Shown: positions 12,674 to 31,268, counted from the stretch's first letter. The stretch: DNA of 64,000 nt from Gemmatimonadales bacterium (GCA_035710265.1 DASTDR010000331.1:2750-66749), one strand, 5' to 3'. Numbers and translations: made by a program. Notes: generated by a model not told the origin, from the letters alone.

Positions 12674-12773
12674 GCAGGAAACTTACGGTGGGGGACGAGG
12701 GTGGCGCTACGCATTATGACCTGTTGGGCGCGCACGCTTGCCCCCTCGAAGCGGTGCGCCATCTTCCCCTGAC

Positions 12774-13553
12774 ATGCGGACCTACCATGACCTGAAAGAC
12801 CCTGACCGCTCTGGTCTTCCCCAGCAGATCGCGGCGCAGCGGCAGCGGGTAAGCGATCGGTTGGCCGGCGTCCGGGAGATCGTGGCCGTCATGAGCGGGA
12901 AGGGCGGGGTGGGCAAGAGCTACGTGACGGCCCATCTGGCCCGGGCGCTGGCGCGGGGTGGGCAGGCGACGGGGGTGCTCGATGCCGACCTGAACGGGCC
13001 CACCATTCCCCGGATGCTCGACGTGCCCACCGCGGTGCGGGTCTCCGCCGGTCAGTGGGTCGAGCCCGTGCTCGGGGCCGATGGCGTTCGCTGCATCTCG
13101 ATGGCGCTGGTTCTGGAGAACGGCGCCCCGCTGTCGTTTCGGGGTCCGGTGGCCGAGTCCTTCGTGTGGCGCGGAGCGATGGAAGCCGCGGCGCTGCGGG
13201 AGTTTCTCGGGGACGTCGCCTGGGGGCCGCTCGACATCCTGCTGCTCGATCTCCCGCCCGGCGTGCAGCGCTACGTGGAGCTGTGCGACATCCTCGGCGC
13301 CGCGCCGCCGGTGCTTACGGTGACGATTCCGACGCCCGAGTCGCGCGACGCCGTGCGGCGCGCGATGCGTGCCGCGGTGGAACGGGGATCTCAGCTGCTC
13401 GGCATCGTCGACAACATGGTGGATGGCCACTACCAGGGAACCGCCGCGAACGATCTGGCGGCAGAGTTCGCGACGCAGGTGCTCGCGCGCGTGCCGTGGA
13501 ACCCCTCGCCCGAGGTCTGGGACGCGTTGGGAAAGCGCATGGCGCACTCATGA
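12774..13553 (+). CDS. mrp: Mrp/NBP35/ApbC-family Fe-S cluster carrier ATPase
   Basis: Deviant Walker A motif VMSGKGGVGKS. The ATG at 12774 is preferred over the track start at 12738. Its stop overlaps the next start (ATGA at 13550-13553). Confidence 0.88.
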   Translation: MRTYHDLKDPDRSGLPQQIAAQRQRVSDRLAGVREIVAVMSGKGGVGKSYVTAHLARALARGGQATGVLDADLNGPTIPRMLDVPTAVRVSAGQWVEPVLGADGVRCISMALVLENGAPLSFRGPVAESFVWRGAMEAAALREFLGDVAWGPLDILLLDLPPGVQRYVELCDILGAAPPVLTVTIPTPESRDAVRRAMRAAVERGSQLLGIVDNMVDGHYQGTAANDLAAEFATQVLARVPWNPSPEVWDALGKRMAHS

Positions 13554-13975
13554 AGTTCCTGTGCGTTGAATGCGACCAACAGATGGCATTCGGGGAGCGC
13601 CAGCTTCCCGGCGACGGCACGCTCGCCGCGACGTTCAAGTGTCCCAAGTGCGGGCGCGTGGTCGCGATGCTGACGAATCCGATGGAGACGCAGCTCGTGT
13701 CCTCACTCGGCGTGGAAATCGGCGGCCGCACCGTGCCGGCCGAGCCGTTTGAGATGATCAACTCGATGGTGACGACGGGCGGGCGGGCCGACGGGCTGAC
13801 GGGCGGCCCATCCTGGTCCGCGGAAGCGCAGGAGCGTCTGACGCGCGTCCCAAGCTTCGTGCGCGGCATGGTGAAGAAGATCTATGCGGACTACGCGAAG
13901 GAACGCGGCATCACCGAAATCACGCCCGCCGTCATGGACACGGCGCGTTCGGAGTTGGGGTTGGAGGGAATGTGA
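13550..13975 (+). CDS. zinc-ribbon protein with a C-terminal PCP_red-like (ChlB/BchB C-terminal-like) domain
   Basis: 141 aa. The zinc ribbon is CVEC...CPKC. The C-terminal segment SWSAEAQERLTRVPSFVRGMVKKIYADYAKERGITEITPAVMDTARSE matches the W..eAe..L..iPfFVRg.v....E.fA.e.G...It signature of the protochlorophyllide reductase B-subunit C-terminal domain. It is coupled on both sides by ATGA and GTGA overlaps. Confidence 0.8.
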   Translation: MKFLCVECDQQMAFGERQLPGDGTLAATFKCPKCGRVVAMLTNPMETQLVSSLGVEIGGRTVPAEPFEMINSMVTTGGRADGLTGGPSWSAEAQERLTRVPSFVRGMVKKIYADYAKERGITEITPAVMDTARSELGLEGM

Positions 13976-16900
13976 AGCTGTTGCTGATGCTGCTTCTGGT
14001 TGCGCAGGGCAAGCCGGCGCCACCACGACGTACCGCGCTGAACCTGTTCGCGCACCCGGGTGCGGTCCTCGAAGCGAATCGGGTCATTTGCGGTCTCGAC
14101 AACGTGGGCCAGTTATGCGCCTCGTTCGCGTCCTCGCCGATCGGCGGCGGCGCGTTCTGGCCCAAGGGCACGCCGGACCAATACATCTTCAACTCGGGCC
14201 TTCAGATGGCCGCCCTGATTCCGGCCGGTGCAGGCTTCGCGTGGGCGGGCGATACGATCGGCGCGTTCTTCTTCGATCCGCGCGGTGATCAGAGCCACGG
14301 CTCCCCCCGCTCGGACGTGTTCAATTCACGAGACAGCGCCGATGCAGTCAATTGGCCCAATGGCGCCGTGATCCGCGACGCGACGACATTCGACGCGCGA
14401 CTGATCGGGCGAAATTTCGCGTCCGAACAGGACCTGTGGATGCGCTACTGGGAAGGATCTCCGCACTTGATCGGCGGTCGCCCGCACCCGATGGGCGTGC
14501 TGGTCGATCAACGTCTGCTCGCGTGGAATTATCCGACCGGTAACCAGGACGTCTTCTACGTGGTCGCTACGTTGTACAACGTGACTGCTCGCACTGCCGG
14601 AGTGTATGCGAATCCTACCATCCCTCCAGAGCTCCAATCCGAGGTCGCTGCCGCGGGGCGCGAATTCCAGGACAGCGCCGAGCAGGCATTCGCGCTAAGC
14701 ATCCCCGATGGCGGCTACGCGCTCGACAGCATGTACGTGCAGCTCGGCATGGATCACGACATCGCCGTTTTTAACCACAACTACGGAACGGCGAGTGTGC
14801 CGTTTGGGATCGGAATCGGGTATACCGGCACGTTTCTCCCCGAGGTGGGCTGGGTCCTCCCGCCGGACCCCTTCGGCGCGCCCCCGTTTGCCGCGGCCCC
14901 CGGATTAGTCGGCACCACGTTCCTGAGGAGCCCGGCGCCGTTCGCGATGTTCACGAACACGACCGGCGGTGGGTCGTTTCCGGACCCGGTCGGCGTCGCG
15001 CTGTTGTGGCGACGGATGTCGGGGAATCTGCTTCCCACAGACACGCAGTGTACGTTTGCCGATCCCGCCGTCGCGCGCGCCCGCCACGTGTGCTTCCTCG
15101 TACAGGTGCAGATCGACAGCCGCTACCAGATGTCCACCGGGCCGTTCAGTCTCGCGCCAGGTGAGGCCAAGACGCTCGTGATGGCCTACATCTTCGCGCC
15201 GCCGCTCGACACCGCCACTGCCTATGTGGGCGGCGATCTGAAGCCGGAGATCCCGTTCACGGGAGACTCGATCGCGCTCGACACCACGAAGATTCGCGCG
15301 ATCGAGCGCGTGGCAGGGTGGCGCACCCAGAGCGACCTCTCCGGCAACGGGGCGATCGAAGCGAACGAGGTCATCGCCGCTCGGCGATCGCTGCTGCACA
15401 AGGCGCAGGTCGCTCAGGCGATCGTGGACGCGAAGTTCCTGATGCCGCAGCCGCCCGATACGCCGGAATTCTTCCTGATCCCCGGCGACAACCAGGTCAC
15501 GATCGTGTGGCAACCGAGCGCCTCAGAAGCAAGTGGCGATCCGTACTTCGCGCTCGCGTCCGACCGCAGCTCGGCGCTGTATGATCCCAACTACCGGCAG
15601 TTCGACGTGGAGGGGTACCGGATCTATCGCGGCACCGATCCGCGTTCGCTCACACTGCTCGCGCAGTTCGATCACGACAACACGTCGTTCGTCGACTACA
15701 CCGGCGCGGTGGCTTATCCCGGCCAGTGCGCGCCCGAGCTGGGGGTCGTCGCCGACTGTCCGGCTGCATTCCCGCCCACGCCCGACACCACGGTCTCGGT
15801 AAGCCAACCGGTGTTTCGCCGCATCGTTCAAGTCCCAGAGGGCGGCCGGATCGTCTCGAGTAACGGTCTCGTCACCACGGTCACCGCCGACACGTTTCCC
15901 GGACACGGATTCGAGCCGCCGTTCGAAACCGGCGTACCCTTCGCGTTCACCGATTCCACTGCGGTGAATTCGTTTCGCTACTACTACGCGGTGACGGTGT
16001 ACGACTTCAACTCGATCAGATCGGGACCGTCGTCGTTCGAGTCACCGCGGTTCACCAAGCTCATCACGCCACGTGCGTCGTCGGGGCAGGAAACCGCGGG
16101 AATGGTGCAAGCCATGCGCTTGTTGGGAGGCGACGGTTCGACGCTTGACTCGGCCATGTCGCTCCCGGCCATCGACCCGGCCACGGGGGTCTTTTCCGGT
16201 CCGATGCCGCCCACCGACGGCCTGGCCCTCGAGTTCACCACCTTCATCCCCGAGCTCCTGGCGAGCGGGAACATCACGGTCACGATCGATTCGATCGCCA
16301 CCGGAATGGCGGTGCTCGACGTGCTGCCCGGCGCCGAGCGTCCGGCCCTGTATTTTCTCACCTCGGTGAGCGCCGGCCTGACCTCGCATCTTACGCTGCC
16401 GCTGCAGATGCGCTCGCCATTCTCCGGCTTTGACGAAGCCACTGCACAGCTGCGGTTCGGGGCGGCGCTGGTTGACTCTGCACAGGCCGCACGTTTCGGT
16501 GCTGCACCCGTAACCCAGCTCGCCGCTCAGGTCACGCTGCGAACACCCAATGCGCTCCGGCTCACCAACTGGGGCCGGGGGGACGCAAACGCAATCCCGC
16601 CGAATTCGGCATTCAACGGGCCGAGGTGGTGGGTGGGCGCCGGCAACGAGAACACCGCGAATCCGAACGGCGGCGTGTGCGCCCCGTCTACCGGCTTCTG
16701 TGCGAACACGTCGCGCGTCCCGAACATCGCGCGCAGTGCGGGGGCGATCTCCGGCGTCACGATCTTCCACGTGCAGTCGTACAACACGATTCCCAATACG
16801 CCGGGGCGCATCGTCGAAGCGGCTCTGGCCACGGTGACGCGCGCGGCCGATTTCAAGGTGTTCTGGGGCACGGCCGGGGTCGTCGACTCGGTCATCGACC

Positions 16901-17742
16901 TGACGCACCGGGTCCGGGTGCCATTCAGTACCCAGGCAGATCCGTCATGGGGCATTCTCACCGAAGCATCGTTCGCGGGAGTCACCGAGGCGCTGACCGG
17001 TGACACGAAAAACACCTTGCTCACCTGGTCGGATCTCTTCTGCGTCGAGCCTCTGCCGGTCTACACGCAGCAATGCGGCGGAGCGGCACAGACGCCGGCC
17101 GCCCTACAGAACACGGCCACGCTCGGCGCGATCGCGATCCGGGACACGGCCTCGAGCTATGCCGGCACGGCCGCGGCCGGCTACACGGCAACCGGCAATG
17201 GCTTCATCTTCTACCTGAACGGCCACTTCTTCCTGATGCAGATGACATCGCTCCCCGCCGCGGGAACGGTCTGGAATGCCCGCTTCTATGCCGGCACCGT
17301 GACCGGCTCGGCGGCGCAGGGGAACTTCGCGTTCGTCCCGGCGGTACGGCCACCGAATGTGCCGGGCCTGCGCGCCCAGATCAGCTTCCAAGGGTCGGAG
17401 CTGAATGCGGTGGCCACGACCGATTCCATGCTCGACAAGATCCACACCGTGCCCGATCCCTTCTATTTGATGAGCGGATTCGAGGTGTCGCCCGACACGC
17501 TGCAGCTCAAGTTCGTGCATCTGCCCGCCATGGCGATCGTGCGCATCTATTCGCTGTACGGCATCCTCGTCAACGTGCTCACCAACAACGATCCCACCGG
17601 CGGCGGGGAGCTCACCTGGGACTTGAAGAGCCGCTCCGGCAAACAGGTCGCCTCGGGCGTGTACTTCTACCACGTCGAAACGATGGATCACAAACGCCGC
17701 GTTGGGCGGTTCACCATCGTGTCGGGCAAGCGCAATCAGTGA
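13972..17742 (+). CDS. very large secreted or cell-surface protein of unknown function with an FN3-like segment and a FlgD-Ig/T9SS-type C-terminal domain
   Basis: 1256 aa with a GTG start and a short signal peptide (KLLLMLLLVAQG). There is an FN3-like stretch (NQVTIVWQPS...EGYRIYRG...YYYAVTVYD). The C-terminal ~90 aa (..VRIYSLYGILVNVL...GELTWDLKSRSGKQVASGVYFYHVE..) are typical of FlgD-Ig or type-IX sorting tails. Confidence 0.85.
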   Translation: MKLLLMLLLVAQGKPAPPRRTALNLFAHPGAVLEANRVICGLDNVGQLCASFASSPIGGGAFWPKGTPDQYIFNSGLQMAALIPAGAGFAWAGDTIGAFFFDPRGDQSHGSPRSDVFNSRDSADAVNWPNGAVIRDATTFDARLIGRNFASEQDLWMRYWEGSPHLIGGRPHPMGVLVDQRLLAWNYPTGNQDVFYVVATLYNVTARTAGVYANPTIPPELQSEVAAAGREFQDSAEQAFALSIPDGGYALDSMYVQLGMDHDIAVFNHNYGTASVPFGIGIGYTGTFLPEVGWVLPPDPFGAPPFAAAPGLVGTTFLRSPAPFAMFTNTTGGGSFPDPVGVALLWRRMSGNLLPTDTQCTFADPAVARARHVCFLVQVQIDSRYQMSTGPFSLAPGEAKTLVMAYIFAPPLDTATAYVGGDLKPEIPFTGDSIALDTTKIRAIERVAGWRTQSDLSGNGAIEANEVIAARRSLLHKAQVAQAIVDAKFLMPQPPDTPEFFLIPGDNQVTIVWQPSASEASGDPYFALASDRSSALYDPNYRQFDVEGYRIYRGTDPRSLTLLAQFDHDNTSFVDYTGAVAYPGQCAPELGVVADCPAAFPPTPDTTVSVSQPVFRRIVQVPEGGRIVSSNGLVTTVTADTFPGHGFEPPFETGVPFAFTDSTAVNSFRYYYAVTVYDFNSIRSGPSSFESPRFTKLITPRASSGQETAGMVQAMRLLGGDGSTLDSAMSLPAIDPATGVFSGPMPPTDGLALEFTTFIPELLASGNITVTIDSIATGMAVLDVLPGAERPALYFLTSVSAGLTSHLTLPLQMRSPFSGFDEATAQLRFGAALVDSAQAARFGAAPVTQLAAQVTLRTPNALRLTNWGRGDANAIPPNSAFNGPRWWVGAGNENTANPNGGVCAPSTGFCANTSRVPNIARSAGAISGVTIFHVQSYNTIPNTPGRIVEAALATVTRAADFKVFWGTAGVVDSVIDLTHRVRVPFSTQADPSWGILTEASFAGVTEALTGDTKNTLLTWSDLFCVEPLPVYTQQCGGAAQTPAALQNTATLGAIAIRDTASSYAGTAAAGYTATGNGFIFYLNGHFFLMQMTSLPAAGTVWNARFYAGTVTGSAAQGNFAFVPAVRPPNVPGLRAQISFQGSELNAVATTDSMLDKIHTVPDPFYLMSGFEVSPDTLQLKFVHLPAMAIVRIYSLYGILVNVLTNNDPTGGGELTWDLKSRSGKQVASGVYFYHVETMDHKRRVGRFTIVSGKRNQ

Positions 17743-17990
17743 GCGACTTCGAAGAGCGCCACGTCGGCGATCTCCGGGTCCGGATCGATCGGACCCTGTG
17801 CGTCGGATTCGGCGACTGCATCACGGAAGCGGGCGAGGCGTTCGTCCTGGACGACGACGGCGTGGCGGTGTTCGTGCGGCCCGAGGCGGTCGAGCGCGAA
17901 CGATTGTTGCGCGCGTGCGACGCCTGCCCGGTGGATGCGATTACGGTTTGGAACGAAGCCGGGAGCCAAATCGTCCCGTCGACCTTGTGA
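17739..17990 (+). CDS. small single-cluster ferredoxin (CVGxGxC...CP type)
   Basis: 83 aa with a GTG start that overlaps the upstream stop (GTGA, 17739-17742). The motif is RTLCVGFGDCITEAGEAF...ACDACPVDAI. Confidence 0.8.
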   Translation: MSDFEERHVGDLRVRIDRTLCVGFGDCITEAGEAFVLDDDGVAVFVRPEAVERERLLRACDACPVDAITVWNEAGSQIVPSTL

Positions 17991-18104
17991 ACAAGTTCCT
18001 TGACAGCCCCTGACCTCGCCTGCATATCCCTTTACTCGTACGGCATCCACACCGACATCCAGCGTTTTTGACCCGCTCGAGCGGCGTCACTCGGGGAGGT
18101 AGCG

Positions 18105-20078
18105 GTGTACCGCGAGATTTTCGTTCCCGTCGACAACTCGCAGCACTCCGACTGGGCCGTGGATCGGGCGATCGAGATGTGCCGGAAGACAGGCGGCCGG
18201 ATCACCGGTAACCATGTCTACGCCGCCCGCCTCCACGATGTGCGCTTCCGCCAGCTCGAGACCGGCCTCCCCGCCCAGTTCCAGACGCCCGAAGAAATCA
18301 AAAAACAGCGCAAAATCCACGACAAGCTGATCGAGAAAGGGCTGCAGCTGATCGCCGACAGCTTTCTGGATCAGCTCGGCAAGCGGTGTGAAGCGGCGGG
18401 CGTCGCGCTGACGCGGCAGCTGCTCGAAGGCATCAACTACGAAGAAATCGTCAACGAAGTGAACCGCGGCGCCGGCAGGCTGCCGGGATTGATCGGCTTC
18501 GATCCCAACCGCGCGGCCGGCTACGACGGCGGCGACAAGGTCCGCAGCGACGTCAAGCTCGGTGAAAACGGTCGGCTCGTCGCCGAAGACGAAGACGCGG
18601 CAGCACGGCTGGTCGGCTCGTCGGGACGGCAATACGACCTGCTCGCGCTCGGCGCGCACGGGCTGGGACGGCAGCAGTTCTCCCAGCTCGGTGGTGTAGT
18701 GGCTCGCGTATTGCGCGGCGTCGAGAAAGATGTGTTGATCGTCCGCGATCAGCAGCCGCTCACCGGCGGGCGCTTCATGGTCTGCGTCGACGGCTCGTCC
18801 TACAGCTACAAGGCCATGAACGCAGCGCTCGAGCTGGCCCACGAATTCGGCGCGTCGCTGTACGTGTGCAGCGCGTTCGACGTCGAATACCATCACGTCG
18901 TCTTCCACAACATCAAGGACGTGCTGTCGTACCAAGCCTCGAAGGTCTTCAAGTTCGAGGAGCAGGAAGAGCTGCACAACAACATCATCGACAAAGGCCT
19001 GCTCAAGCTGTGCCAGGCCAACTTGAAGCGCGCGGAAGTCATGGCGCAGCAGTTCCCCGACGTGCCGATCAAGACGCAGATCCTGATCGGCAAGCCGTTC
19101 CAGGTGATTCTCCAGTGGGCGGAGGAAATCAAGCCGACGCTCATGGTCATCGGCCGCCATGGGGCCCACCGCATCGAAGGGACCGATCTCGGCTCGCAGG
19201 CCGAAAACCTCCTGCGCGCCGCTCCCTGCTCCCTGCTCCTCGTCGGCGTTGTCGGTGTTCGTCCGGAAGACATTCCCTGGATCGAAGAAGATGGCCAGGC
19301 CGGGCTGCCGTGGGCGCCCGAGGCCGAAGTCCGGATCCTGCGCGTGCCGCCGTTCGCGCAGGGTATCGCGCGGCGCGCGGTCGAAGAATACGTGCTCGAG
19401 AAAGTGGGCAACGCCGGCCCTCCACCGACCGTGACCAACAAGTGGCTCGATGAAGCGATCCAGAAGCTGCTCCCGACGCACATGCAGCTCATCATGGGCA
19501 TCGGCAGCGCCGAGGAAATCGCCCTGGCGGAGGTGAAAGCCACGGAGCAGATGAAGGCGACGAAGGTCCAGGGTCACGATGCCGACCCCGAGCCGGCAAT
19601 GGCGGAAGTCGAGACCAAATGTCCAGTTACGGGCGCGGTCTCGAAGCGCCCCCGCGTGGCGAGCGACCCGATCGTCTGGACCGAAGAGGGGTGGGAGCGT
19701 CTCCAGCTCGTCCCGTTGATCGCGCGGCCGCTCGCGCGCAACACCGTCGAGCGGTTTGCGCGCAATCACGGCATCTGGCGCGTCACCACGGCCGTCATGG
19801 ACGACAACAAGCAGGCCATGATCGAGGCCGACGAGTTCGACATCGACACGATGATGGTGATGTTCACGGAGCTCCGCGCCAAACAGATCCGGGCTGAAGC
19901 CGAGGGACAGGATGCGCTCTCACCCGAGATGCGCGCGTTCATCGAGGAAGCAAAGGCGCAGGGCATCACGCGCTGTCCCATCCGCGACATTGAAGCCAAG
20001 ATGGAGAAGTGCCCGGTCGACATGAAGGCCGTGACGCCCGAAGAAGCGAAACGCGCAGTCGAGAAGCTGCTGCAGTGA
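18105..20078 (+). CDS. tandem universal-stress-protein domains fused to two PCP_red-like domains and a Cys-containing C-terminal tail
   Basis: 657 aa with a GTG start after GGGGAGG. It has two UspA-like domains (IFVPVDNSQHS...; FMVCVDGSSYS...LMVIGRHGAHRIEG..LGSQAENLL). The PCP_red-like copies are at about 19308-19470 (PWAPEAEVRILRVPPFAQGIARRAVEEYV) and 19674-19820 (VWTEEGWERLQLVPLIARPLARNTVERFARNHGIWRVT). The tail reads ..ITRCPIRDIEAKMEKCPV... Confidence 0.85.
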   Translation: MYREIFVPVDNSQHSDWAVDRAIEMCRKTGGRITGNHVYAARLHDVRFRQLETGLPAQFQTPEEIKKQRKIHDKLIEKGLQLIADSFLDQLGKRCEAAGVALTRQLLEGINYEEIVNEVNRGAGRLPGLIGFDPNRAAGYDGGDKVRSDVKLGENGRLVAEDEDAAARLVGSSGRQYDLLALGAHGLGRQQFSQLGGVVARVLRGVEKDVLIVRDQQPLTGGRFMVCVDGSSYSYKAMNAALELAHEFGASLYVCSAFDVEYHHVVFHNIKDVLSYQASKVFKFEEQEELHNNIIDKGLLKLCQANLKRAEVMAQQFPDVPIKTQILIGKPFQVILQWAEEIKPTLMVIGRHGAHRIEGTDLGSQAENLLRAAPCSLLLVGVVGVRPEDIPWIEEDGQAGLPWAPEAEVRILRVPPFAQGIARRAVEEYVLEKVGNAGPPPTVTNKWLDEAIQKLLPTHMQLIMGIGSAEEIALAEVKATEQMKATKVQGHDADPEPAMAEVETKCPVTGAVSKRPRVASDPIVWTEEGWERLQLVPLIARPLARNTVERFARNHGIWRVTTAVMDDNKQAMIEADEFDIDTMMVMFTELRAKQIRAEAEGQDALSPEMRAFIEEAKAQGITRCPIRDIEAKMEKCPVDMKAVTPEEAKRAVEKLLQ

Positions 20079-21346
20079 GCTTCGTCCCACACGTCGTCGC
20101 ATGGAATCTCACGCGGCGCTGTAACCTGGAGTGCGCCCACTGCTATATCGCGGCGGGGCCGCATGAGAGTGCGACCTCCGAACTCGACACGTCCGAGTGC
20201 CTGCGCATCGTGGACGAGCTGCTCGCCGTGAACCCCGCGCCGATGTTGATCCTCTCCGGCGGCGAGCCGCTGCTGCGCCAGGATCTTACCGAGATCGCCG
20301 CGTACGCGTCGCAGCGCGGTGCGACGGTCGTGGTGGGCACGAACGGCACGCTGCTCTCGGACGAGCGCATCGCCGGGCTCAAGGCGGCGGGCGTGCGCGG
20401 CGTCGCGGTCTCAATCGATTCGCTGCGCCCGACGTACCACGACAACTTCCGGCACGGCAAAGGGTCGCTCGACGACACGGTCAGGGCACTGGGTCGCCTG
20501 CGCGCGCAGCAGCTCGATTTCGTCATCCAGACGACAGCGACCAAAGGCAATCGCGCCGAGCTCGAGCGCATCGCGCAATGGTCGGCGGAGCTGGGCGCCG
20601 TCGCGTTCAACTGCTATTTCCTGGTCGCGACGGGACGGGGCGCCGGCATGTCGGATCTGTCGCCCGCCGAGTACGAAGCGGTGCTCGCCGATCTCGCCAG
20701 ATGGCAACGGGATTACCGCGGCACCATGATGGTGCGCGCCAAGTGCGCGCCGCATTTCATGCGTCATGTCCATCTCCTGGATCCTGACTCCCAGATCCTG
20801 AATTACCAGACCCGCTGCCCGTGCGGCACTCAGTACTGCCGGATCACGCCCGACGGCAAGCTCACGCCGTGCCCGTATCTGCCCGAGGTGGCGGGCGATC
20901 TGCGCACGCACAGCTTCGGGGAGATCTGGCGCTCGTCCCCGCTGTTCCAGCGGATCCGCGAGGGGACACTGGGCGGCAAGTGCGGCCGATGCGAGTACCA
21001 GAAGCTGTGCGGTGGCTGCCGCGCGCGCGCGTTCGCGCTCGAGGGCGACGTGCTCGCCGCGGATCCATCATGCAGTTACGAGCCGCAAGGGCTGGAGGTG
21101 ATTCAGCCGAAGAGCGTGAGCTACGGCAGCGAGTTCACGCCTGCGCTGACCTGGTCGGCGGCGGCGCGCACGCGGCTCGAGCGGATCCCGTCGTTCGTGC
21201 GCGGGGTCGTCGCCAAACGCGTCGAAGACTGGGCACGCGAGCGCGGCGTGCAGGAAATCACGCCGGAGCTGCTCGGGGAAATCCGCAACGCAATGCCGAT
21301 CGATTTCTCGAAACGCAAACCATTCTTTGTGTCCGATGACCGATAA
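20075..21346 (+). CDS. radical SAM / SPASM-domain enzyme (NirJ/AhbC/AhbD-like) with a C-terminal PCP_red-like domain
   Basis: The GTG start overlaps the upstream stop (GTGA). The radical SAM cluster motif is NLTRRCNLECAHCY, with ILSGGEPLLRQD. The SPASM Cys-rich region is ..RCPCG..C..GKCGRCEYQKLCGGCRARAF... The C-terminal segment TWSAAARTRLERIPSFVRGVVAKRVEDWARERGVQEITPELL lies at 21149-21298. Confidence 0.88.
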   Translation: MSFVPHVVAWNLTRRCNLECAHCYIAAGPHESATSELDTSECLRIVDELLAVNPAPMLILSGGEPLLRQDLTEIAAYASQRGATVVVGTNGTLLSDERIAGLKAAGVRGVAVSIDSLRPTYHDNFRHGKGSLDDTVRALGRLRAQQLDFVIQTTATKGNRAELERIAQWSAELGAVAFNCYFLVATGRGAGMSDLSPAEYEAVLADLARWQRDYRGTMMVRAKCAPHFMRHVHLLDPDSQILNYQTRCPCGTQYCRITPDGKLTPCPYLPEVAGDLRTHSFGEIWRSSPLFQRIREGTLGGKCGRCEYQKLCGGCRARAFALEGDVLAADPSCSYEPQGLEVIQPKSVSYGSEFTPALTWSAAARTRLERIPSFVRGVVAKRVEDWARERGVQEITPELLGEIRNAMPIDFSKRKPFFVSDDR

Positions 21347-21349
21347 CCG

Positions 21350-23059
21350 ATGACCGAGCATCTGCTCCTTCAGGCGGCCGCCGACACCGTGGGCGCCTAC
21401 CGCGACTTCCCGGTGATCGGCAGCCGGGCCGCGATCTGGATCGCGGCGGAAATCCACCTGATGTTCGCGGCGTTCGTGCTGGGCGTGCCGATGTTCGCGG
21501 TGGTCGCGGAGGCGATCGGCATCTTCGGCAAGGACCAGCGCTACGATCGCCTGTCCAAGGAATTCACCCGGCTGCTGCTGATCGCCTACAGCGCGACGGC
21601 CATCTGGGGGGCGGTGCTCGTATTCCTGCTGTCCACCCTCTACCCCAAGTTCTGGGCCTATCTGACGGCCATCTTCGGAACATCGATGTGGGTGTACGTC
21701 TCGATCTTTTTCTTCGAGTCGTTCACGCTGTACCTGTATTACTACGGCTGGGACCGCTGGAAGTATGGGACATCCAAGATCGTGCATTGGTGCCTCGGCA
21801 TTCTGCTGAACGTGTGGGGCACCATCGTCATGTTCATCGCGGACGGCTGGCTCACGTACATGATGTCGCCGCCGCGCGACATCACGCCCACGACCGCGCC
21901 GGCAAGTGTCCGCTTCTGGGAAGCGTTCATGAACCACACGTGGATGCCGATCAACATCCACCGCCTCATCGGCAACGTGGTGTTCGGCGGCGCGATCGTG
22001 GGCGCGTACGCGAGTTACCGCTTCCTCGCGTCCCGCAGCGAGGAAGAGCGCGCGCACTACGACTGGATGGGCTACGTCGGCAACTTCATCGCGATTTCGG
22101 CGCTGATCGTGCTGCCGTTCGCCGGCTACTGGCTGGGGCGTGAGATCTACATGTACGACCAGTCGATGGGCATTACGATGATGGGCGGCTTCATGAGCTG
22201 GCTGTGGGTCATTCAAGCCTTCCTCATCGCGGTGCTGTTCCTGGCCGGCAACTACTATCTGTGGGTCGGGATGGGCCGTATTCCCGGCGCCGAGCGGTTC
22301 CGGCCGTACACGAAGTGGCTGCTCGCCGTGCTCGTAATCGGCGCGATCGTGTGGGGCACGCCGCACACCATGATCGCCGACTCGCGCGAGCTCGCGGCGA
22401 TGGGCGGCTCGCACCATCCCTTCCTCGGTGTCCTGGGCGTCATGAGCGCCAAGAACACCGCGGTGAACCTGATGATCCTCGCGACGTTCCTCTCCTTCCT
22501 CCTGTACCGGCGCGCCAACATCCGCCCCGTCGTGCCGTGGGCCCAGACCGGGACGCGGATTCAGGGCGCGATGTTCGCGATCGCGGCCGCGATCGTGCTG
22601 TTCTACGGCATCCGCGGCTACTTCGTCGAAGCGATCGTGCGCATCGGCTATTCGGTTTATCAAGTCGGCGCCGTGCTCGCGTGCATCGTGTTCGTCACCG
22701 TGATCGACGTGCTCATGGCGCGCGGCGCGCAGTCGCTGGGGGCGATCCAATGGGGCAAGATGCCGCCGCGCTCGCAGTACGCGCTCTTCATCCTGGCCGT
22801 CACCTTCACCTGGCTCATGGGCCTGATGGGGTTCGCGCGCAGCGGGATTCGCCAGCACTGGCACGTGTGGCAAGTCCTGCCGGACACGTCGCAGTACGCG
22901 GCCACGCCCGCGCTCGGGTATGCGTCGATCATGATCAGCGCCTGCGTGCTGATCTTCCTGGCGCTGGTCGGATTCATCTTCTGGCTCGGAGGGCTCGCCG
23001 AGAAGTCCACTTTCGTGCCCGCGGTCAGCACCGTGGAGGCCCCGCATGTGGGCCATTAA
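21350..23059 (+). CDS. cytochrome bd-like membrane protein (CydA superfamily, no CydB partner)
   Basis: 569 aa and polytopic. CydA hallmarks are a TM1 His (AAEIHLMFAAF), FFFESFTLYLYYYGW, NVWGTIVMFIADGWLTYMMSPP and a TM5 His (PINIHRLIGNVVFGG). It has extra C-terminal helices. No cydB or cydX follows. Confidence 0.85.
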   Translation: MTEHLLLQAAADTVGAYRDFPVIGSRAAIWIAAEIHLMFAAFVLGVPMFAVVAEAIGIFGKDQRYDRLSKEFTRLLLIAYSATAIWGAVLVFLLSTLYPKFWAYLTAIFGTSMWVYVSIFFFESFTLYLYYYGWDRWKYGTSKIVHWCLGILLNVWGTIVMFIADGWLTYMMSPPRDITPTTAPASVRFWEAFMNHTWMPINIHRLIGNVVFGGAIVGAYASYRFLASRSEEERAHYDWMGYVGNFIAISALIVLPFAGYWLGREIYMYDQSMGITMMGGFMSWLWVIQAFLIAVLFLAGNYYLWVGMGRIPGAERFRPYTKWLLAVLVIGAIVWGTPHTMIADSRELAAMGGSHHPFLGVLGVMSAKNTAVNLMILATFLSFLLYRRANIRPVVPWAQTGTRIQGAMFAIAAAIVLFYGIRGYFVEAIVRIGYSVYQVGAVLACIVFVTVIDVLMARGAQSLGAIQWGKMPPRSQYALFILAVTFTWLMGLMGFARSGIRQHWHVWQVLPDTSQYAATPALGYASIMISACVLIFLALVGFIFWLGGLAEKSTFVPAVSTVEAPHVGH

Positions 23060-26937: not shown

Positions 26938-27609
26938 ATGCGTTGGTGGCTCCCCGACGCAGGATCGACGTTCGCCGGGCCGATCGACACGATGTTCACG
27001 GTGATTCTGATTCTCACCGGCATTGCGCTGGTCATCGTGGAGGTCGGCGTGGTGGCCTTCGTGATTCGCTACCGCGCGCGCCCGGGCCGGAGGGCGTTCT
27101 ACACGCACGGCTCGACGCGCGCGGAAGTGATTTGGACGGCGATCCCCGCCGTGACCATGATCGTGCTCGGTCTCGTGAGCAATCACTACTGGGTCATGAT
27201 GAAGGACAAGAAGAGCGTGCCGCCCAACGCGATTCCGCTGGGCGTGCACGGCAAGCAGTTCGAATGGATCATGTCCTACCCCGGGGCGGACGGGAAGCTC
27301 GGCTCGGACGACGACTTCACCGTGCGCAACCAGCTTCACATCCCCGTCAACCAGCCGGTCGCGATCCAGCTCACCGCGGAAGATGTGATTCACTCGTTCT
27401 TCGTGCCCGAGTTCCGCGTGAAGCAGGATGCGGTTCCCGGCATGAACATCACCGCCTGGTTCCAGGCGACCAAGACGGGTGAATTCGAGATCGGCTGCGC
27501 CGAGCTGTGCGGGATGGGACACTACAAGATGCGGGCGCGAGTGTTCGTGCATACGCCCGAGGAGTTCACGGCCTGGATGACCCAACAAGCCGCCGGAGGA
27601 GCCGAATGA
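26938..27609 (+). CDS. coxB: cytochrome c oxidase subunit II (CuA; no fused cytochrome c)
   Basis: The ATG at 26938 follows GAGGAG. It has two TM helices and the CuA motif HSFFVPEFRVKQDAVPGM...GCAELCGMGHYKM. Confidence 0.93.
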   Translation: MRWWLPDAGSTFAGPIDTMFTVILILTGIALVIVEVGVVAFVIRYRARPGRRAFYTHGSTRAEVIWTAIPAVTMIVLGLVSNHYWVMMKDKKSVPPNAIPLGVHGKQFEWIMSYPGADGKLGSDDDFTVRNQLHIPVNQPVAIQLTAEDVIHSFFVPEFRVKQDAVPGMNITAWFQATKTGEFEIGCAELCGMGHYKMRARVFVHTPEEFTAWMTQQAAGGAE

Positions 27610-29396
27610 CGAGCGTCGCGCACGCGAAGCACGATGCCCACGGAGGCTCGGGGGGGGGCCACCACGCGCCCATGAGCTTCTGGCAGAAATACGTTTTCTC
27701 CACCGATCACAAGATCATCGGCATCCAGTTCCTGTTCGTCAGCTTGTTCTTCCTGCTGGTCGGAGGAATCCTGGCGATGCAGATCCGCTGGCAGCTCGGC
27801 TTTCCGGGCAAGCCGATGCCGGGCGGCGGGATCCTGCCGGAAACGATGGCGCCGGGCGGCGTGATCCTGCCCGAGTACTACATCCAGCTCGTCACGATGC
27901 ACGGCACGTTCATGGTGTTCTTCGCCATCATGCCGCTGCTCGTCGGGGTCTACGCCAACTTCCTGATTCCGCTGAAGCTGGGTGCGCACGATATGGCGTT
28001 CCCGCGCATCAACATGTGGTCGTTCTGGCTCGCGCTGCTCGCGGGCCTGATCATGCTCGCGGGGTTTTTCGTGCCCGACGGCGCGCCGCGCGCCGGCTGG
28101 ACGATGTACACGCCGCTCTCGGCCCGTCCCGACCTCTCGGGCGCGACGCTGAGCCAGCAGCTCTGGTGCGTGTCGATCGTCGTGTTGGGCCTCTCGTCGG
28201 TCATGGGCTCGGTCAATTACATCACGACCGTCATCAATCACCGCGCGCCCGGCATGACCTGGTTCCGCATGCCGCTCTCGGTGTGGGCGCTGTTCATTAC
28301 CGCGATCCTGGGCGTGCTCGCGCTCCCGGTGCTCCAGGGCGCCGCGATCATGCTGCTGTTCGACCAGTCGATCGGCACCCACTTCTTCGATCCGACCGCC
28401 GGCGGCCAGGCGCTGCTGTGGCAGCACCTGTTCTGGTTCTTCGGCCATCCCGAGGTCTACATCCTGATCCTGCCCGCGATGGGCATGGTGTCGGACATCA
28501 TCGCCAACGGCAGTCGCAAACCGATCTTCGGCTATCACTCGATGGTTTTTGCGATCATCGGGATCGCGTTCCTGGGCTGGATCGTGTGGGGTCACCACAT
28601 GTTCATGAGCGGCATGAACCCGACGCTCGGGTCGACGTTCATGGTCTCGACCCTGCTCATCGCGGTACCGTCCGCCGTCAAGGTGTTCAACTGGATGGGC
28701 ACGATGTGGCGTGGAAACCTGCATTTCCACGTGCCGATGCTGAACGCGATCGGGTTCGTGTCGATGTTCACGATCGGCGGGCTGTCCGGCATCTTCATGG
28801 CCGCGACACCGGTGGACATTCCGATCCACGACACGCAGTTCATCGTCGCGCACATCCATTACGTGCTGTTCGGCGGCTCGCTGTTCGCGTTGTTCGCGGC
28901 GATCACGTTCTGGTATCCCAAGATGTTCGGCCGGGTGATGAACGAGCCGCTGGGCAAGGTGCACTTCTGGCTGACGATGATCGCCTACAATCTGACGTTT
29001 TTCCCGATGCACATCATTGGCATGGGCGGCCAGATGCGGCGGATCTACGATCCCACGATCTACGACTTCCTGAAGCCGCAGCAGCCGATGAACGAGTTCA
29101 TCTCCTACAGCGCGTTCGCCCTCTTCGCCGTGCAGTTCATCTTCGCGTTCAACTTCCTCTGGAGCTTGAAGGCGGGGAAAAAGGCCGAGCCGAATCCGTG
29201 GAACGACAACGGCCTGGAGTGGTCGCTGCCCAATCCCGCGCCCCACGGCAACTGGGCGCCGGCGACCCCGAACGTGTACCGCGGGCCGTACGAATTCAGC
29301 GCGCCCGAAGCGCCGGACACCGACTTCCTGCCGCAGACCAGGAAGCTGCCGACCGATCGCGATCCCGTACCCGCGACTCTCTCGGGAGGACACTGA
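27606..29396 (+). CDS. coxA: cytochrome c oxidase subunit I (haem-copper oxidase, A-type)
   Basis: 596 aa. Motifs include STDHKIIGIQFLF, WFFGHPEVYILILP and HHMF. It is joined to coxB by an ATGA overlap. Confidence 0.96.
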   Translation: MTSVAHAKHDAHGGSGGGHHAPMSFWQKYVFSTDHKIIGIQFLFVSLFFLLVGGILAMQIRWQLGFPGKPMPGGGILPETMAPGGVILPEYYIQLVTMHGTFMVFFAIMPLLVGVYANFLIPLKLGAHDMAFPRINMWSFWLALLAGLIMLAGFFVPDGAPRAGWTMYTPLSARPDLSGATLSQQLWCVSIVVLGLSSVMGSVNYITTVINHRAPGMTWFRMPLSVWALFITAILGVLALPVLQGAAIMLLFDQSIGTHFFDPTAGGQALLWQHLFWFFGHPEVYILILPAMGMVSDIIANGSRKPIFGYHSMVFAIIGIAFLGWIVWGHHMFMSGMNPTLGSTFMVSTLLIAVPSAVKVFNWMGTMWRGNLHFHVPMLNAIGFVSMFTIGGLSGIFMAATPVDIPIHDTQFIVAHIHYVLFGGSLFALFAAITFWYPKMFGRVMNEPLGKVHFWLTMIAYNLTFFPMHIIGMGGQMRRIYDPTIYDFLKPQQPMNEFISYSAFALFAVQFIFAFNFLWSLKAGKKAEPNPWNDNGLEWSLPNPAPHGNWAPATPNVYRGPYEFSAPEAPDTDFLPQTRKLPTDRDPVPATLSGGH

Positions 29397-29397
29397 C

Positions 29398-30117
29398 GTG
29401 GCCAGTACCGCGATGACCGACGCGATGCGGCCGCCGTACCCGGCCGAGACGGGAGCGGGGGTATACAGCAACAAGCTGGGCATGTGGGTCTTCCTGGCCA
29501 GCGACGTGATGTTCTTCACGGCGCTGATCGGCTCCTACATCGTGCTGCGGTTCGGGATGACGGACGTGTGGGCCCAGCCCGGCGCGGTCTTGAACGTGCC
29601 GCTCACGGCGTTCAACACGTTCCTGCTGATTTGCTCGTCGGTATCGATGGTGAAGGCGTACGCCGCCATTCAGGACGGCAAGACGTACTTCCTGCGGAAG
29701 ATTCCCGGACAGGCGCTGCAGGACGGCGGTCTCAAGTTCTGGATGCTCGTGACCATTGTGTGCGGCGCGGCGTTCGTCGGCGTGCAGGTCTACGAGTACA
29801 TCAAACTGGTCGAGCACGGCTTCACGCCCGCCGGATTCCGCGAAGGCTCGCAGCTCGCCGAGCACGCCGCGACCGACGCGGTCAAATACGGCGCCGCGAC
29901 GGCCGGGATGTATGGATCCACCTTCTTCACGATGACGGGCTTCCACGGCTTCCACGTCACGTGCGGTGTGGTCAGCATGCTGTATCTGTACTTCACGAAG
30001 GTCTTGCCGGAGAAGTACTCGTCGCAGGATTATCGCGGCATCGAGGTGATCGGGTTGTACTGGCATTTCGTCGATCTGGTCTGGATCATCCTGTTCACCA
30101 TCGTCTACCTGGTTTGA
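29398..30117 (+). CDS. coxC: cytochrome c oxidase subunit III
   Basis: 239 aa with a GTG start 1 nt after the coxA stop. Motifs include GMWVFLASDVMFF.. and ..FHGFHV..GLYWHFVDLVWI... Confidence 0.92.
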   Translation: MASTAMTDAMRPPYPAETGAGVYSNKLGMWVFLASDVMFFTALIGSYIVLRFGMTDVWAQPGAVLNVPLTAFNTFLLICSSVSMVKAYAAIQDGKTYFLRKIPGQALQDGGLKFWMLVTIVCGAAFVGVQVYEYIKLVEHGFTPAGFREGSQLAEHAATDAVKYGAATAGMYGSTFFTMTGFHGFHVTCGVVSMLYLYFTKVLPEKYSSQDYRGIEVIGLYWHFVDLVWIILFTIVYLV

Positions 30118-30126
30118 GGGCGAACC

Positions 30127-30420
30127 ATGACAACGACGACCCCGGCAACGTCCACGCACCGCCGGCCGAACTACATGCTGATCTGGCTGTACCTCTTCGT
30201 CATGACGGTGATCGAGGTCGGCGTGGCATTCATCTCGGGCCTGCCCAAACACTGGCTGCTCATCATCCTGCTGTTCCTCGCGATCTGGAAGGCGCTGCTC
30301 GTCGCGTTGTTCTTCATGCATCTCAAGTTCGAGCGCTGGCGGCTGCGCCTGATCTTCATCATCCCGCTGCCGTTGGCGCTGATCCTCATCACCGCCGGGA
30401 TCCTGGAGAAGATCTGGTAG
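30127..30420 (+). CDS. cytochrome c oxidase subunit IV (prokaryotic small subunit)
   Basis: 97 aa with three TM helices. The ..LVALFFMHLKFE.. motif is typical of the bacterial CoxIV/CyoD family. Confidence 0.85.
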   Translation: MTTTTPATSTHRRPNYMLIWLYLFVMTVIEVGVAFISGLPKHWLLIILLFLAIWKALLVALFFMHLKFERWRLRLIFIIPLPLALILITAGILEKIW

Positions 30421-31268
30421 CGTCGTCGCTGCTCGAGCTGACGAAGCCGCGCATCACGCAGCTGGTGTTGCTCACCGCCGCGACCGGGTTCTACCTCGGC
30501 GCGAACGGGCGAGTGGACATGCTGCTGCTCGCCAACACGTTGCTCGGCACCGCCCTCGTCGCGGCGGGGACGAACGCGTGGAACCAGATCCGCGAGCGCG
30601 ACGTGGACGCGCGGATGGCGCGCACGCGCCGCCGCCCGTTGCCGTCCGGCCGGCTCACGCTCCAGGCCGCGACGTGGTTCGCGTCCGGGATTACGGCGGC
30701 GGGCGTCGGATACCTGGCGGCCACCGTGAATGTGGTGACGGCGCTGCTCGCCGCACTCACGTTCGCGACCTATGTCCTGTTGTATACGCCGCTCAAGCGC
30801 AGGTCGACGTTGAACACGCTGGTGGGGGCGGTACCCGGTGCGCTGCCGATCGTCGGCGGCTGGACCGCCGCCGGTGGCCACCTGGGCGCGGGCGTCGCGG
30901 CATTGTTCTGGATCCTGTTCCTGTGGCAGCTGCCCCACTTCCTCGCACTCGCCTGGTTGTACCGCGAAGACTATCGGGCCGGCGGCCTGCGGATGCTCAG
31001 CGTAGACGATGAAACCGGCGCCGATACGGGGCGCATGGCGATGCTGTACGCCGTCGCGCTCCTGCCGATCAGCCTGATGCCGACGCTGCTCGGTGTCACG
31101 GGGCCGTTGTACTTCTTCGGCGCGTTGGCGCTCGGCGTATTGTACGTCGCGGCGGGAACGGGACTGCTCGTCGGCGCAACGCCCCCGCGCGCCTGGCGCC
31201 TTTTTTTCGTTTCGATTCTGTATCTGCCTGCGCTGCTCACCTTGATGGTGCTCGACAAAGCGGCGTAA
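30414..31268 (+). CDS. ctaB: protohaem IX farnesyltransferase (haem O synthase); start probably non-canonical
   Basis: The protein is UbiA-family (..LELTKPRITQLVLLTAATG.., ..NQIRERDVDARMARTRRRPLPSG.., ..LWQLPHFLALAW..). No ATG, GTG or TTG lies between the coxIV stop region and the conserved LTKPRI motif. In-frame CTG codons are at 30414 and 30429. The track start at 29484 runs through coxC and coxD. Confidence 0.85.
   Translation: MVASSLLELTKPRITQLVLLTAATGFYLGANGRVDMLLLANTLLGTALVAAGTNAWNQIRERDVDARMARTRRRPLPSGRLTLQAATWFASGITAAGVGYLAATVNVVTALLAALTFATYVLLYTPLKRRSTLNTLVGAVPGALPIVGGWTAAGGHLGAGVAALFWILFLWQLPHFLALAWLYREDYRAGGLRMLSVDDETGADTGRMAMLYAVALLPISLMPTLLGVTGPLYFFGALALGVLYVAAGTGLLVGATPPRAWRLFFVSILYLPALLTLMVLDKAA

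Follow-up and report, generated by a model that had tools for sequence, protein, structure and literature searches.

PCP_red modules mark a zinc-ribbon protein, a Usp fusion and an AhbD-like radical SAM enzyme beside bd-like oxidase genes in a Gemmatimonadales bacterium

Four copies of the PCP_red domain (PF08369), otherwise found at the C-terminus of the chlorophyll-synthesis protein BchB/ChlB, lie on three neighbouring genes in a 64,000-nucleotide stretch of DNA from a Gemmatimonadales bacterium (GCA_035710265.1, DASTDR010000331.1:2750-66749), the whole of which is called the window below. The genes encode a zinc-ribbon protein, a fusion of two Usp domains with two PCP_red modules and a radical SAM enzyme that resembles AhbD. 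The four modules would be a common label on the members of a conserved accessory module in the cytoplasm, co-transcribed with a 'bd-like' oxidase complex of OR-N2 type. We tentatively favour, as a possibility that falls somewhat short of an even chance, an oxygen-independent haem-tailoring or hand-off role for this module in the service of the bd-like oxidase, with PCP_red as the docking module that its members share.

Four PCP_red modules on three coupled genes

In a Pfam hmmscan of the window proteins all three exceeded the PF08369 gathering cut-off of 32.5 bits. The zinc-ribbon protein (13550-13975) scored 57.1 bits (E 1.8e-15) at amino acids 89-133, covering the whole profile (1-45), the Usp fusion (18105-20078) scored 61.4 bits (E 8.4e-17) over two stretches and the radical SAM open reading frame (20009/20075-21346) scored 46.2 bits (E 4.8e-12). 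A custom PCP_red hidden Markov model, trained on 1037 domain instances from family proteins and scanned against the six frames of the GC-rich window (63-70%), returned exactly four modules at nt 13814-13939, 19311-19403, 19677-19802 and 21152-21274, of which the second runs on to about 19470 beyond a 4-residue insertion. No fifth module was found by this six-frame scan of the 64 kb, and because the next-best match had an i-Evalue of 42 the four-module result is far beyond chance. The first-pass annotation had reported four copies on three neighbouring proteins, and both this count and the coordinates and peptides it gave for the modules agree with the scan.

The resemblance to the ChlB/BchB C-terminus that had been proposed also holds, as the modules belong to the same Pfam family and match the C-termini of solved BchB/ChlB structures (2XDQ, 3AEK, 2YNM); further matches were the stand-alone PCP_red structures solved by nuclear magnetic resonance, 2KRU and 2L09 (Asr4154). 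In an alignment of six PCP_red sequences that included two photosynthetic ones (the 63-residue protein of 2KRU and the ChlB of 2XDQ) the invariant residues were limited to W, P, G and T, and identities to the zinc-ribbon copy were 30-44%. PCP_red corresponds to residues 471-520 of BchB and the rest of that protein is absent, with TIGR01278 reaching 32-45 bits against a cut-off of 490 and covering only the last 50-90 profile positions, the C-terminal tail. None of the three proteins is therefore BchB, and the window proteins scanned showed no chlorophyll genes. A BchB pseudogene or remnant of photosynthesis was considered and rejected, as the terminal domain alone is present and sits on three intact, strongly conserved genes.

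The genes of the module, in their order in the window, are as follows.

12738..13553, + strand: Mrp/NUBPL-like P-loop ATPase, the first gene of the operon (Pfam ParA/NUBPL, 153 bits)
13550..13975, + strand: zinc-ribbon/rubredoxin-like protein (CxxC...CPKC) of 141 aa with a C-terminal PCP_red (PF08369; Zn_ribbon_4 weak)
13972..17742, + strand: strain-specific insert, a 1256-aa secreted protein with a C-terminal domain of the type IX secretion system type, which interrupts the module and is not part of it
17739..17990, + strand: small single-cluster 4Fe-4S ferredoxin (Fer4_13, Fer4_15, 39 bits), its GTG start overlapping the preceding stop
18105..20078, + strand: tandem Usp protein of the ATP-binding type, 657 aa, with two PCP_red modules at 19311-19470 and 19677-19802 (Usp, 125 bits)
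20075..21346, + strand: AhbD/NirJ2-like radical SAM/SPASM enzyme with a C-terminal PCP_red at 21152-21274 (Radical_SAM 90.7 bits, SPASM 39.4 bits)

A CydA-like gene follows directly. The stop of the ATPase gene overlaps the start of the zinc-ribbon gene (ATGA), the stop of the Usp gene overlaps the GTG start of the radical SAM gene at 20075 (GTGA), the CydA-like start lies 3 nt past the radical SAM stop and the cytochrome genes further downstream overlap one another by 4-14 nt. The zinc-ribbon, Usp and radical SAM genes are thus translationally coupled in one operon. This arrangement is kept throughout the phylum. The best 80 loci from a scan of genome contigs were all from Gemmatimonadota and 63 of them had enough flank to be counted; at Usp identities of 57-96% the radical SAM gene follows Usp in 62/63 and the CydA-like gene is present in 62/63, with the zinc-ribbon-PCP_red, ferredoxin and Mrp-like ATPase genes upstream in 61/63. 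The closest locus, L053, belongs to an uncultured Gemmatimonadales metagenome-assembled genome and its Usp protein is 96% identical. The start/stop overlaps, together with synteny in 61-62 of the 63 loci, bear out the earlier proposal that the three PCP_red genes act as one functional unit.

The insert is a 3.76 kb single gene placed exactly between the zinc-ribbon-PCP_red stop and the ferredoxin start. L053, the 96%-identical relative, and L041 both lack window positions 13976-17738, and tblastn returned 0 matches to the insert in the 80 Gemmatimonadota loci. Its C-terminal 60 aa weakly match the PorZ model of NCBIfam. Both junctions are GTGA start/stop overlaps and translational coupling is therefore kept on both sides. 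The Mrp-like ATPase had MrpORP as its top NCBIfam match, at 137 bits against a cut-off of 450, and fell below the ApbC cut-off too. The CxxC of the iron-sulfur carriers Mrp/ApbC/NBP35 does not occur in its sequence, which has just two isolated cysteines, and the gene was not seen with the module in other phyla.

The radical SAM enzyme and the Usp-PCP_red protein

Searches of NCBIfam placed the radical SAM protein closest to two enzymes of tetrapyrrole metabolism, with TIGR04545 AhbD at 303.5 bits over the full profile (1-339) and NirJ2 at 299.9 bits. The same two models ranked first over their full length in five lineages, at 300-331 bits and in all cases below the AhbD cut-off; the orthologues tested were 41-44% identical, came from a Ca. 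Manganitrophus locus, an Endoriftia-like gammaproteobacterium, SAR324 and Mariprofundaceae, and gave the same model ranking, with 300-321 bits for AhbD. Six of the best seven models are tetrapyrrole radical SAM families or are so named (NirJ2, AhbD, NirJ, AhbC, NirJ1 and pseudo-SAM/SPASM), and the seventh, TIGR04053, has no assigned function. On the window protein the models for peptide maturases reached at most 150 bits, that for a tungsten-cofactor radical SAM maturase 75 bits and MoaA 83 bits, against 303 for AhbD.

The cysteine motifs point the same way. The protein carries CX3CX2C (RRCNLECAHCY) and CGRCEYQKLCGGC-x17-C, and the auxiliary-cluster motif reported for AhbD, CX2CX5CX2CX17C (PMC10114771), is matched exactly in the window enzyme and, as counted by eye, in its Endoriftia-like orthologue. 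The cysteines of CX3CX2C and of the auxiliary motif are invariant in 79 relatives. An AlphaFold model built from 79 sequences had a mean predicted local distance difference test score (pLDDT) of 84.5 and a predicted template modelling score of 0.78, and shows a SPASM radical SAM fold, then a disordered linker at 344-350 and PCP_red helices predicted at 357-364, 368-385 and 392-401 (pLDDT about 80-89). Foldseek comparison of this model with the PDB returned just generic SPASM enzymes, among them PqqE, SkfB, SuiB and anSME; we know of no AhbD structure with which to compare it. Given scores below the cut-off together with an exact motif, the enzyme is treated here as AhbD-like in working and is not filed as AhbD. 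From its sequence, we infer that it may convert Fe-coproporphyrin III to haem b.

Numerous SPASM enzymes mature peptides, and the closest solved structures just named would suit a quite different system that acts on proteins. PCP_red would then be just a protein-protein interaction domain, the Usp protein would sense ATP or redox state and control the oxidase, and the SPASM enzyme would modify a protein or peptide, such as a subunit of the complex or the PCP_red repeats, and not a tetrapyrrole. Peptide-maturase models, however, score half or less of AhbD/NirJ2. Also against this account, the auxiliary motif of AhbD is matched exactly, the radical SAM gene of Proteobacteria has a HemY-type porphyrinogen oxidase right behind it and no conserved small precursor-like open reading frame was seen in the contexts examined. 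In its favour are also the tandem PCP_red repeats, which resemble a multivalent docking array, the position of the BchB PCP_red segment away from the element reported to touch pigment (below) and the presence in Ktedonobacterales of Usp-PCP_red with CydA-like genes and no radical SAM gene. Taking both sides together we regard it as unlikely.

The Usp-PCP_red protein has the PF00582 fold and the G-x2-G-x9-G-(S/T) motif of ATP-binding Usp proteins. In Usp domain 2 the nucleotide motif is perfect (G-x2-G-x9-G-S at aa 352-366, reading GRHGAHRIEGTDLGS) and in domain 1 it is near-perfect, reading GAHGLGRQQFSQLGG with Gly replacing Ser/Thr. The family comprises 255 representatives (50% clusters) at E<1e-30, and among 31 representatives at 28-72% identity the motif glycines do not vary, nor do many other positions. 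Usp and PCP_red domains occur together in 31/31 full-length representatives tested, the number of PCP_red repeats in relatives reaching five or more, and 9/31 have an additional rubredoxin-like domain. The occurrence of this last domain inside Usp-PCP_red proteins provides a Rosetta-stone link to the separate zinc-ribbon-PCP_red gene of the window. It also refines the earlier naming of that gene product: its PCP_red part stands as described, and for its ribbon a redox or metal domain of the rubredoxin type is the likelier identity. A single-sequence AlphaFold model of the zinc-ribbon-PCP_red protein was poor (pLDDT 58.9) and was not used.

Three Cys-Pro motifs lie outside the Usp domains, at KC506PV (nt 19620), RC624PI (nt 19974) and KC636PV (nt 20010). 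Their cysteines C506, C624 and C636 are 100% conserved in 69 Gemmatimonadota orthologues, whereas other cysteines are conserved at 58-94% and the flanking stretches are more variable. Among 151 diverse relatives an isolated cysteine was part of Cys-Pro in 77/268 cases in the PCP_red-bearing half and in 12/531 in the Usp core, a 12-fold enrichment in the C-terminal halves of the family, and in 44/77 a His follows 2-5 residues later, as in CPVPH and CPFAH, giving variants of the form C-P-(V/I/F)-x-H. Conserved Cys-Pro dipeptides that lie outside folded domains and ligate ferric haem are the haem regulatory motifs of Hap1, ALAS, HO-2 and Irr, and we take the Usp sites to be putative motifs of this kind.

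The oxidase operon, the haem genes and conservation in other phyla

Downstream of the radical SAM gene the following genes were identified, in this order.

21350..23059, + strand: CydA-like membrane protein of OR-N2 / 'bd-like clade I' type (Cyt_bd_oxida_I, 80 bits)
23046-23843, + strand: cytochrome c (Pfam)
23840-24619, + strand: cytochrome c (Pfam)
24612-26144, + strand: dihaem cytochrome c fused to an EB_dh haem b domain (Pfam)
26141-26920, + strand: CarboxypepD_reg-like protein (Pfam)
26938..31268, + strand: CoxB, CoxA, CoxC, CoxD and haem O synthase (CyoE), continuing the same gene string
31623-32699, + strand: ChdC(HemQ)-Rieske fusion (Chlor_dismutase 190 bits plus Rieske; HemQ_actino 128 bits against a cut-off of 235)
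32743-33696, + strand: HemE (URO-D, 391 bits)
33686-34600, + strand: ferrochelatase (Ferrochelatase, 263 bits)
about 34597-35649, + strand: HemY-type oxidase (TIGR00562, 114-116 bits against a cut-off of 97.85)

An OR-N2 operon has been described as comprising a CydA homologue that lacks the quinol-site half and has more than nine helices, several cytochromes c and an EbdC homologue (10.1101/2021.01.16.426971, supplement). In the window the CydA-like match is limited to positions 2-241 of the 418 in Cyt_bd_oxida_I, a crude hydropathy scan gives about 12-14 hydrophobic segments, and several cytochromes c and an EbdC homologue are encoded alongside, so that the downstream complex fits the OR-N2 type as judged by operon make-up and profile match. 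The CydA-like protein is 58% identical to that of SAR324 and 47% to the Endoriftia-like one, and its partner genes (two cytochromes c, the cytochrome c/EB_dh fusion and the CarboxypepD_reg-like protein) are syntenic in Gemmatimonadota. The Sec-type c-cytochrome/EB_dh fusion at 24612-26144 implies that non-covalent haem b is loaded into a periplasmic domain.

Haem enzymes had been noted in the window previously, and ChdC, HemE, ferrochelatase and HemY, genes of the coproporphyrin-dependent haem pathway, are indeed all present downstream. The ChdC carries a C-terminal Rieske [2Fe-2S] ferredoxin domain, an unusual architecture that might supply a built-in redox partner. The HemY-type gene is short (about 350 aa), with TIGR00562 positions ~82-222 missing, and still passes the cut-off.

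Other phyla were reached through representatives, a profile search, look-ups of the encoding contigs and a metagenome scan. Outside Gemmatimonadota, Usp-PCP_red was found in Nitrospirota/Ca. Manganitrophaceae, Nitrospinota, Mariprofundaceae, Ktedonobacterales, SAR324 and sulfur-oxidising Gamma- and Betaproteobacteria. The pair of Usp-PCP_red and radical SAM-PCP_red is kept across at least seven lineages, often beside orthologues of the CydA-like, cytochrome c and EB_dh genes. In SAR324 the order is CydA-like, two cytochromes c, cytochrome c/EB_dh, radical SAM-PCP_red, a PCP_red protein, Usp-PCP_red-Rbx-PCP_red and a HEAT protein. In an Endoriftia-like and another gammaproteobacterium and in Sulfuricellaceae the CydA-like, cytochrome c and EB_dh genes adjoin Usp-PCP_red and radical SAM-PCP_red, and in these three proteobacterial loci a HemY-type oxidase (TIGR00562, 226-239 bits against 97.85) comes directly after the radical SAM gene. 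Sets of oxidase orthologues stand beside the PCP_red module in loci L083, L085, L091 and L092, and the CarboxypepD_reg-like protein is shared outside the phylum as well. In Nitrospirota the order is Usp-PCP_red-Rbx, radical SAM-PCP_red, a protein with three PCP_red modules and a membrane protein of the CopD/HemJ superfamily.

The metagenome scan yielded 80 further loci at 38-57% identity to a zetaproteobacterial query, of which 23 had more than 5 kb on both sides and were taken as well-flanked. The radical SAM gene is adjacent in 22/23 of these and a CydA-like gene is present in 12/23, one or the other occurring in every locus; a HemY homologue was found by tblastn in 10/23 and a CopD-like gene in 9/23. 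Matches to MoaA in the metagenome were cross-matches to the radical SAM gene itself and were disregarded.

Two further neighbours recur. In Nitrospirota-like loci a membrane protein of 153-171 aa follows the radical SAM-PCP_red gene (L081 15213-15674; L088 15283-15744; L130 13517-14032), and this CopD/UPF0093(HemJ)-superfamily protein occupies the slot held by the soluble HemY-type oxidase in Proteobacteria. It scored 36 bits with CopD at one locus, and 27 bits with UPF0093/HemJ (cut-off 34) and 25.5 with CopD at another, with a weak CopD match in NCBIfam. By its position and profile matches it may be a non-orthologous replacement for the porphyrinogen oxidase; its family is ambiguous and it is not used as evidence. 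HEAT-repeat proteins of 730-830 aa lie by the module in Proteobacteria and SAR324 (L083 6547-9003; L085 12442-14640; L086 4283-6547; L092 4287-6779), the one scanned, in L083, being weakly similar to HEAT repeats of the phycobilin-lyase/NblB type. No homologue of these was found in the window.

A simpler account would see the radical SAM enzyme as a housekeeping oxygen-independent coproheme decarboxylase, an AhbD isoenzyme of ChdC, with Usp-PCP_red as a low-oxygen regulator, the oxidase as a neighbour through shared micro-oxic expression and no carrier or docking role for PCP_red. AhbD replaces ChdC in some coproporphyrin-pathway organisms and occurs in such organisms without the other Ahb genes (PMC13564367), and ChdC, HemE, ferrochelatase and HemY are all encoded in the window. 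Usp proteins by electron-transport clusters of Nitrospira marina rise at low O2 (PMC8115632), and the module of Nitrospirota sits away from any CydA-like gene. The adjacency of Usp-PCP_red and radical SAM-PCP_red in 22 of the 23 well-flanked loci, from diverse lineages and with the same rare domain on both, nevertheless argues for physical cooperation. The module is found in addition in Proteobacteria, where the protoporphyrin route is the one to be expected, the enzyme stays under the AhbD cut-off in all lineages tested and orthologues of the oxidase co-travel with the module across phyla. We consider this account fairly unlikely.

A putative haem hand-off module and its relation to known systems

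In the haem-tailoring or hand-off reading that we favour, the parts of the module would be the rubredoxin/zinc-ribbon-PCP_red protein, a Usp scaffold with PCP_red repeats and Cys-Pro or rubredoxin inserts and the AhbD-like radical SAM/SPASM-PCP_red enzyme, with the small ferredoxin and the Mrp-like ATPase as additions confined to Gemmatimonadota. The radical SAM enzyme would act, without oxygen and in the manner of AhbD, on side chains of an iron tetrapyrrole, in the simplest case turning coproheme into haem b, and the ferredoxin and rubredoxin-like domain would supply and remove electrons for this chemistry. The three-helix PCP_red modules would act as common docking units that join enzyme, redox partner and scaffold. 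The Usp scaffold might then hold haem transiently through its invariant Cys-Pro motifs and hand it on to the CydA-like and EB_dh subunits for their haem b sites, the oxidase being the presumed client.

The tetrapyrrole connection that the first-pass annotation drew for this gene set is credible, with the radical SAM enzyme AhbD/NirJ2-like in every lineage tested, HemY-type oxidases adjacent in Proteobacteria and haem-pathway genes in the window. It gains support from the oxygen-independent substitution of AhbD for ChdC (PMC13564367). It is also supported by the dependence of the AhbD reaction on an electron acceptor from outside (PMC10114771), a need to which a ferredoxin and a rubredoxin-like partner are suited.

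The premise that PCP_red helps to enclose the tetrapyrrole in BchB did not find support. In a cryo-electron microscopy study of the dark-operative protochlorophyllide oxidoreductase, helix 391-418 is the only element contributed in trans that is named as touching protochlorophyllide (bioRxiv 10.1101/2024.04.26.590571), and PCP_red, at 471-520, lies outside it. Tetrapyrrole binding by PCP_red is putative, which weighs against the favoured reading, and we therefore prefer to see PCP_red as a shared docking or hand-off module and not as a proven porphyrin binder.

Several other observations also weigh against the reading. At about 300 bits the radical SAM enzyme is well below the AhbD and NirJ2 equivalog cut-offs of 500, so its substrate may differ. 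Proteobacteria normally do not have coproheme, so a simple 'AhbD' reaction may not apply there. Judged by position in the sequence, with no alignment, the Cys-Pro cysteines of the window protein lie approximately where relatives carry rubredoxin knuckles, and they could therefore form a metal site instead of binding haem. The loci of Nitrospirota have the module and no CydA-like gene within 10 kb, and in Ktedonobacterales Usp-PCP_red lies directly upstream of a CydA-like/Rieske/cytochrome b/CydA-like string with no radical SAM gene. The linkage to bd-like genes elsewhere that had been anticipated thus stands for SAR324, the Gamma- and Betaproteobacteria, Ktedonobacterales and 12 of the 23 well-flanked metagenome loci, and fails for Nitrospirota and one locus of Mariprofundaceae. 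In this last, zetaproteobacterial locus (L086) the Usp-, radical SAM- and PCP_red-only genes are interleaved with MoaA, MoaCDE, MobAB, ModABC and TOBE genes and the module adjoins an arsenite-oxidase-like AioAB pair, a context that misfits a purely haem-related role.

The L086 locus would sit more comfortably with maturation of a metal cofactor (Mo/W or Fe-S), the module serving a molybdo- or iron-sulfur enzyme linked to EB_dh-type cytochromes. The gamma subunits of Mo enzymes have the EB_dh fold (10.1101/2021.01.16.426971, supplement), the CydA-like genes of Ktedonobacterales have an SBP_bac_11 binding protein behind them and MrpORP is the best match of the Mrp-like ATPase. Only one lineage shows this molybdenum context, however. 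In the 80 metagenome loci tblastn found no match to MoaC or ModA, and no Mo enzyme was found among the window proteins scanned. The low scores of the tungsten-cofactor maturase and MoaA models beside AhbD tell against it too, as does the Mrp-like protein, which is without CxxC and confined to Gemmatimonadota. Such a role seems highly improbable.

A bolder form of the haem hand-off reading, which we find doubtful, would make PCP_red a portable tetrapyrrole-carrier or docking domain, and Usp-(PCP_red)n with its Cys-Pro or rubredoxin inserts a chaperone platform on which the AhbD-like enzyme makes or tailors haem for OR-N2 oxidases, assisted by a HemY-type or CopD/HemJ-superfamily helper according to phylum. 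This would amount to a dedicated oxygen-independent haem maturation line with a product that is possibly not plain haem b.

In the literature searched, the PCP_red-tagged module and its coupling to OR-N oxidases are undescribed, although the component families are already known; nothing was found that combines 'bd-like' with 'radical SAM', and nothing relevant on PF08369/PCP_red or Asr4154/2KRU. OR-N 'bd-like' oxidases are the proposed main oxygen reductases of Nitrospira nitrite oxidisers and manganese-oxidising Ca. Manganitrophus and are found as well in numerous lineages of soil and sea, with cofactors, oxygen affinity and a mode of assembly that are uncharacterised (PMC12342949). A conserved AhbD-like enzyme with a PCP_red-rich scaffold offers a handle on which haem these oxidases carry, how it is made and how it is delivered at low oxygen. 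If the favoured reading is true, it would provide the first functional context for PF08369, a family with two solved stand-alone structures and no assigned function beyond chlorophyll synthesis.

Compared with the OR-N2 (10.1101/2021.01.16.426971) and 'TO_1' (10.1101/2021.11.15.468770) clusters of Nitrospirota, the window has in common a CydA-like protein that lacks the quinol-site half and has many additional helices, together with two cytochromes c and a periplasmic cytochrome b resembling EbdC. It differs in that a single gene string takes in the oxidase, the PCP_red module and a cox operon, and the main text and searchable supplements of those papers do not mention radical SAM, Usp or protochlorophyllide-type domains.

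The PCP_red modules share with BchB/ChlB, 2KRU and 2L09 the signature W..EA...L..(I/V)P.F(V/A)R...........A.E.G...(I/V)T, the zinc-ribbon copy being 39-43% identical to the two photosynthetic examples, and the radical SAM copy is predicted to form three helices. Unlike BchB/ChlB, the window proteins have no nitrogenase-like domains and no BchN/BchL partners, and their PCP_red comes joined to a zinc ribbon, a Usp tandem and a radical SAM enzyme, with relatives carrying as many as five or more repeats. The likeness of the Usp protein to haem regulatory motifs lies in a basic residue followed by Cys-Pro-Val/Ile, outside the Pfam-matched domains and invariant in orthologues; the location of the three sites, approximately at the rubredoxin knuckles of relatives, sets them apart and makes a metal site an equal alternative on this evidence.

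With AhbD/NirJ2 the radical SAM enzyme has in common a full-length match, CX3CX2C, SPASM, the exact auxiliary motif and haem-pathway genes nearby. In contrast to AhbD, its family carries one to four C-terminal PCP_red modules beyond the reach of the AhbD model, invariably has a Usp-PCP_red gene as partner and is present in Proteobacteria too; none of AhbA/B/C was seen among the window proteins scanned. HemW, a radical-SAM-family haem chaperone that loads haem b into the nitrate reductase NarI (PMC10114771), offers an analogy of function alone, as a cytoplasmic Fe-S/radical-SAM-type protein handling (nearly) finished haem for a membrane respiratory enzyme. It is CgdH/HemN-like, not SPASM/AhbD-like, and has neither PCP_red nor a Usp partner.

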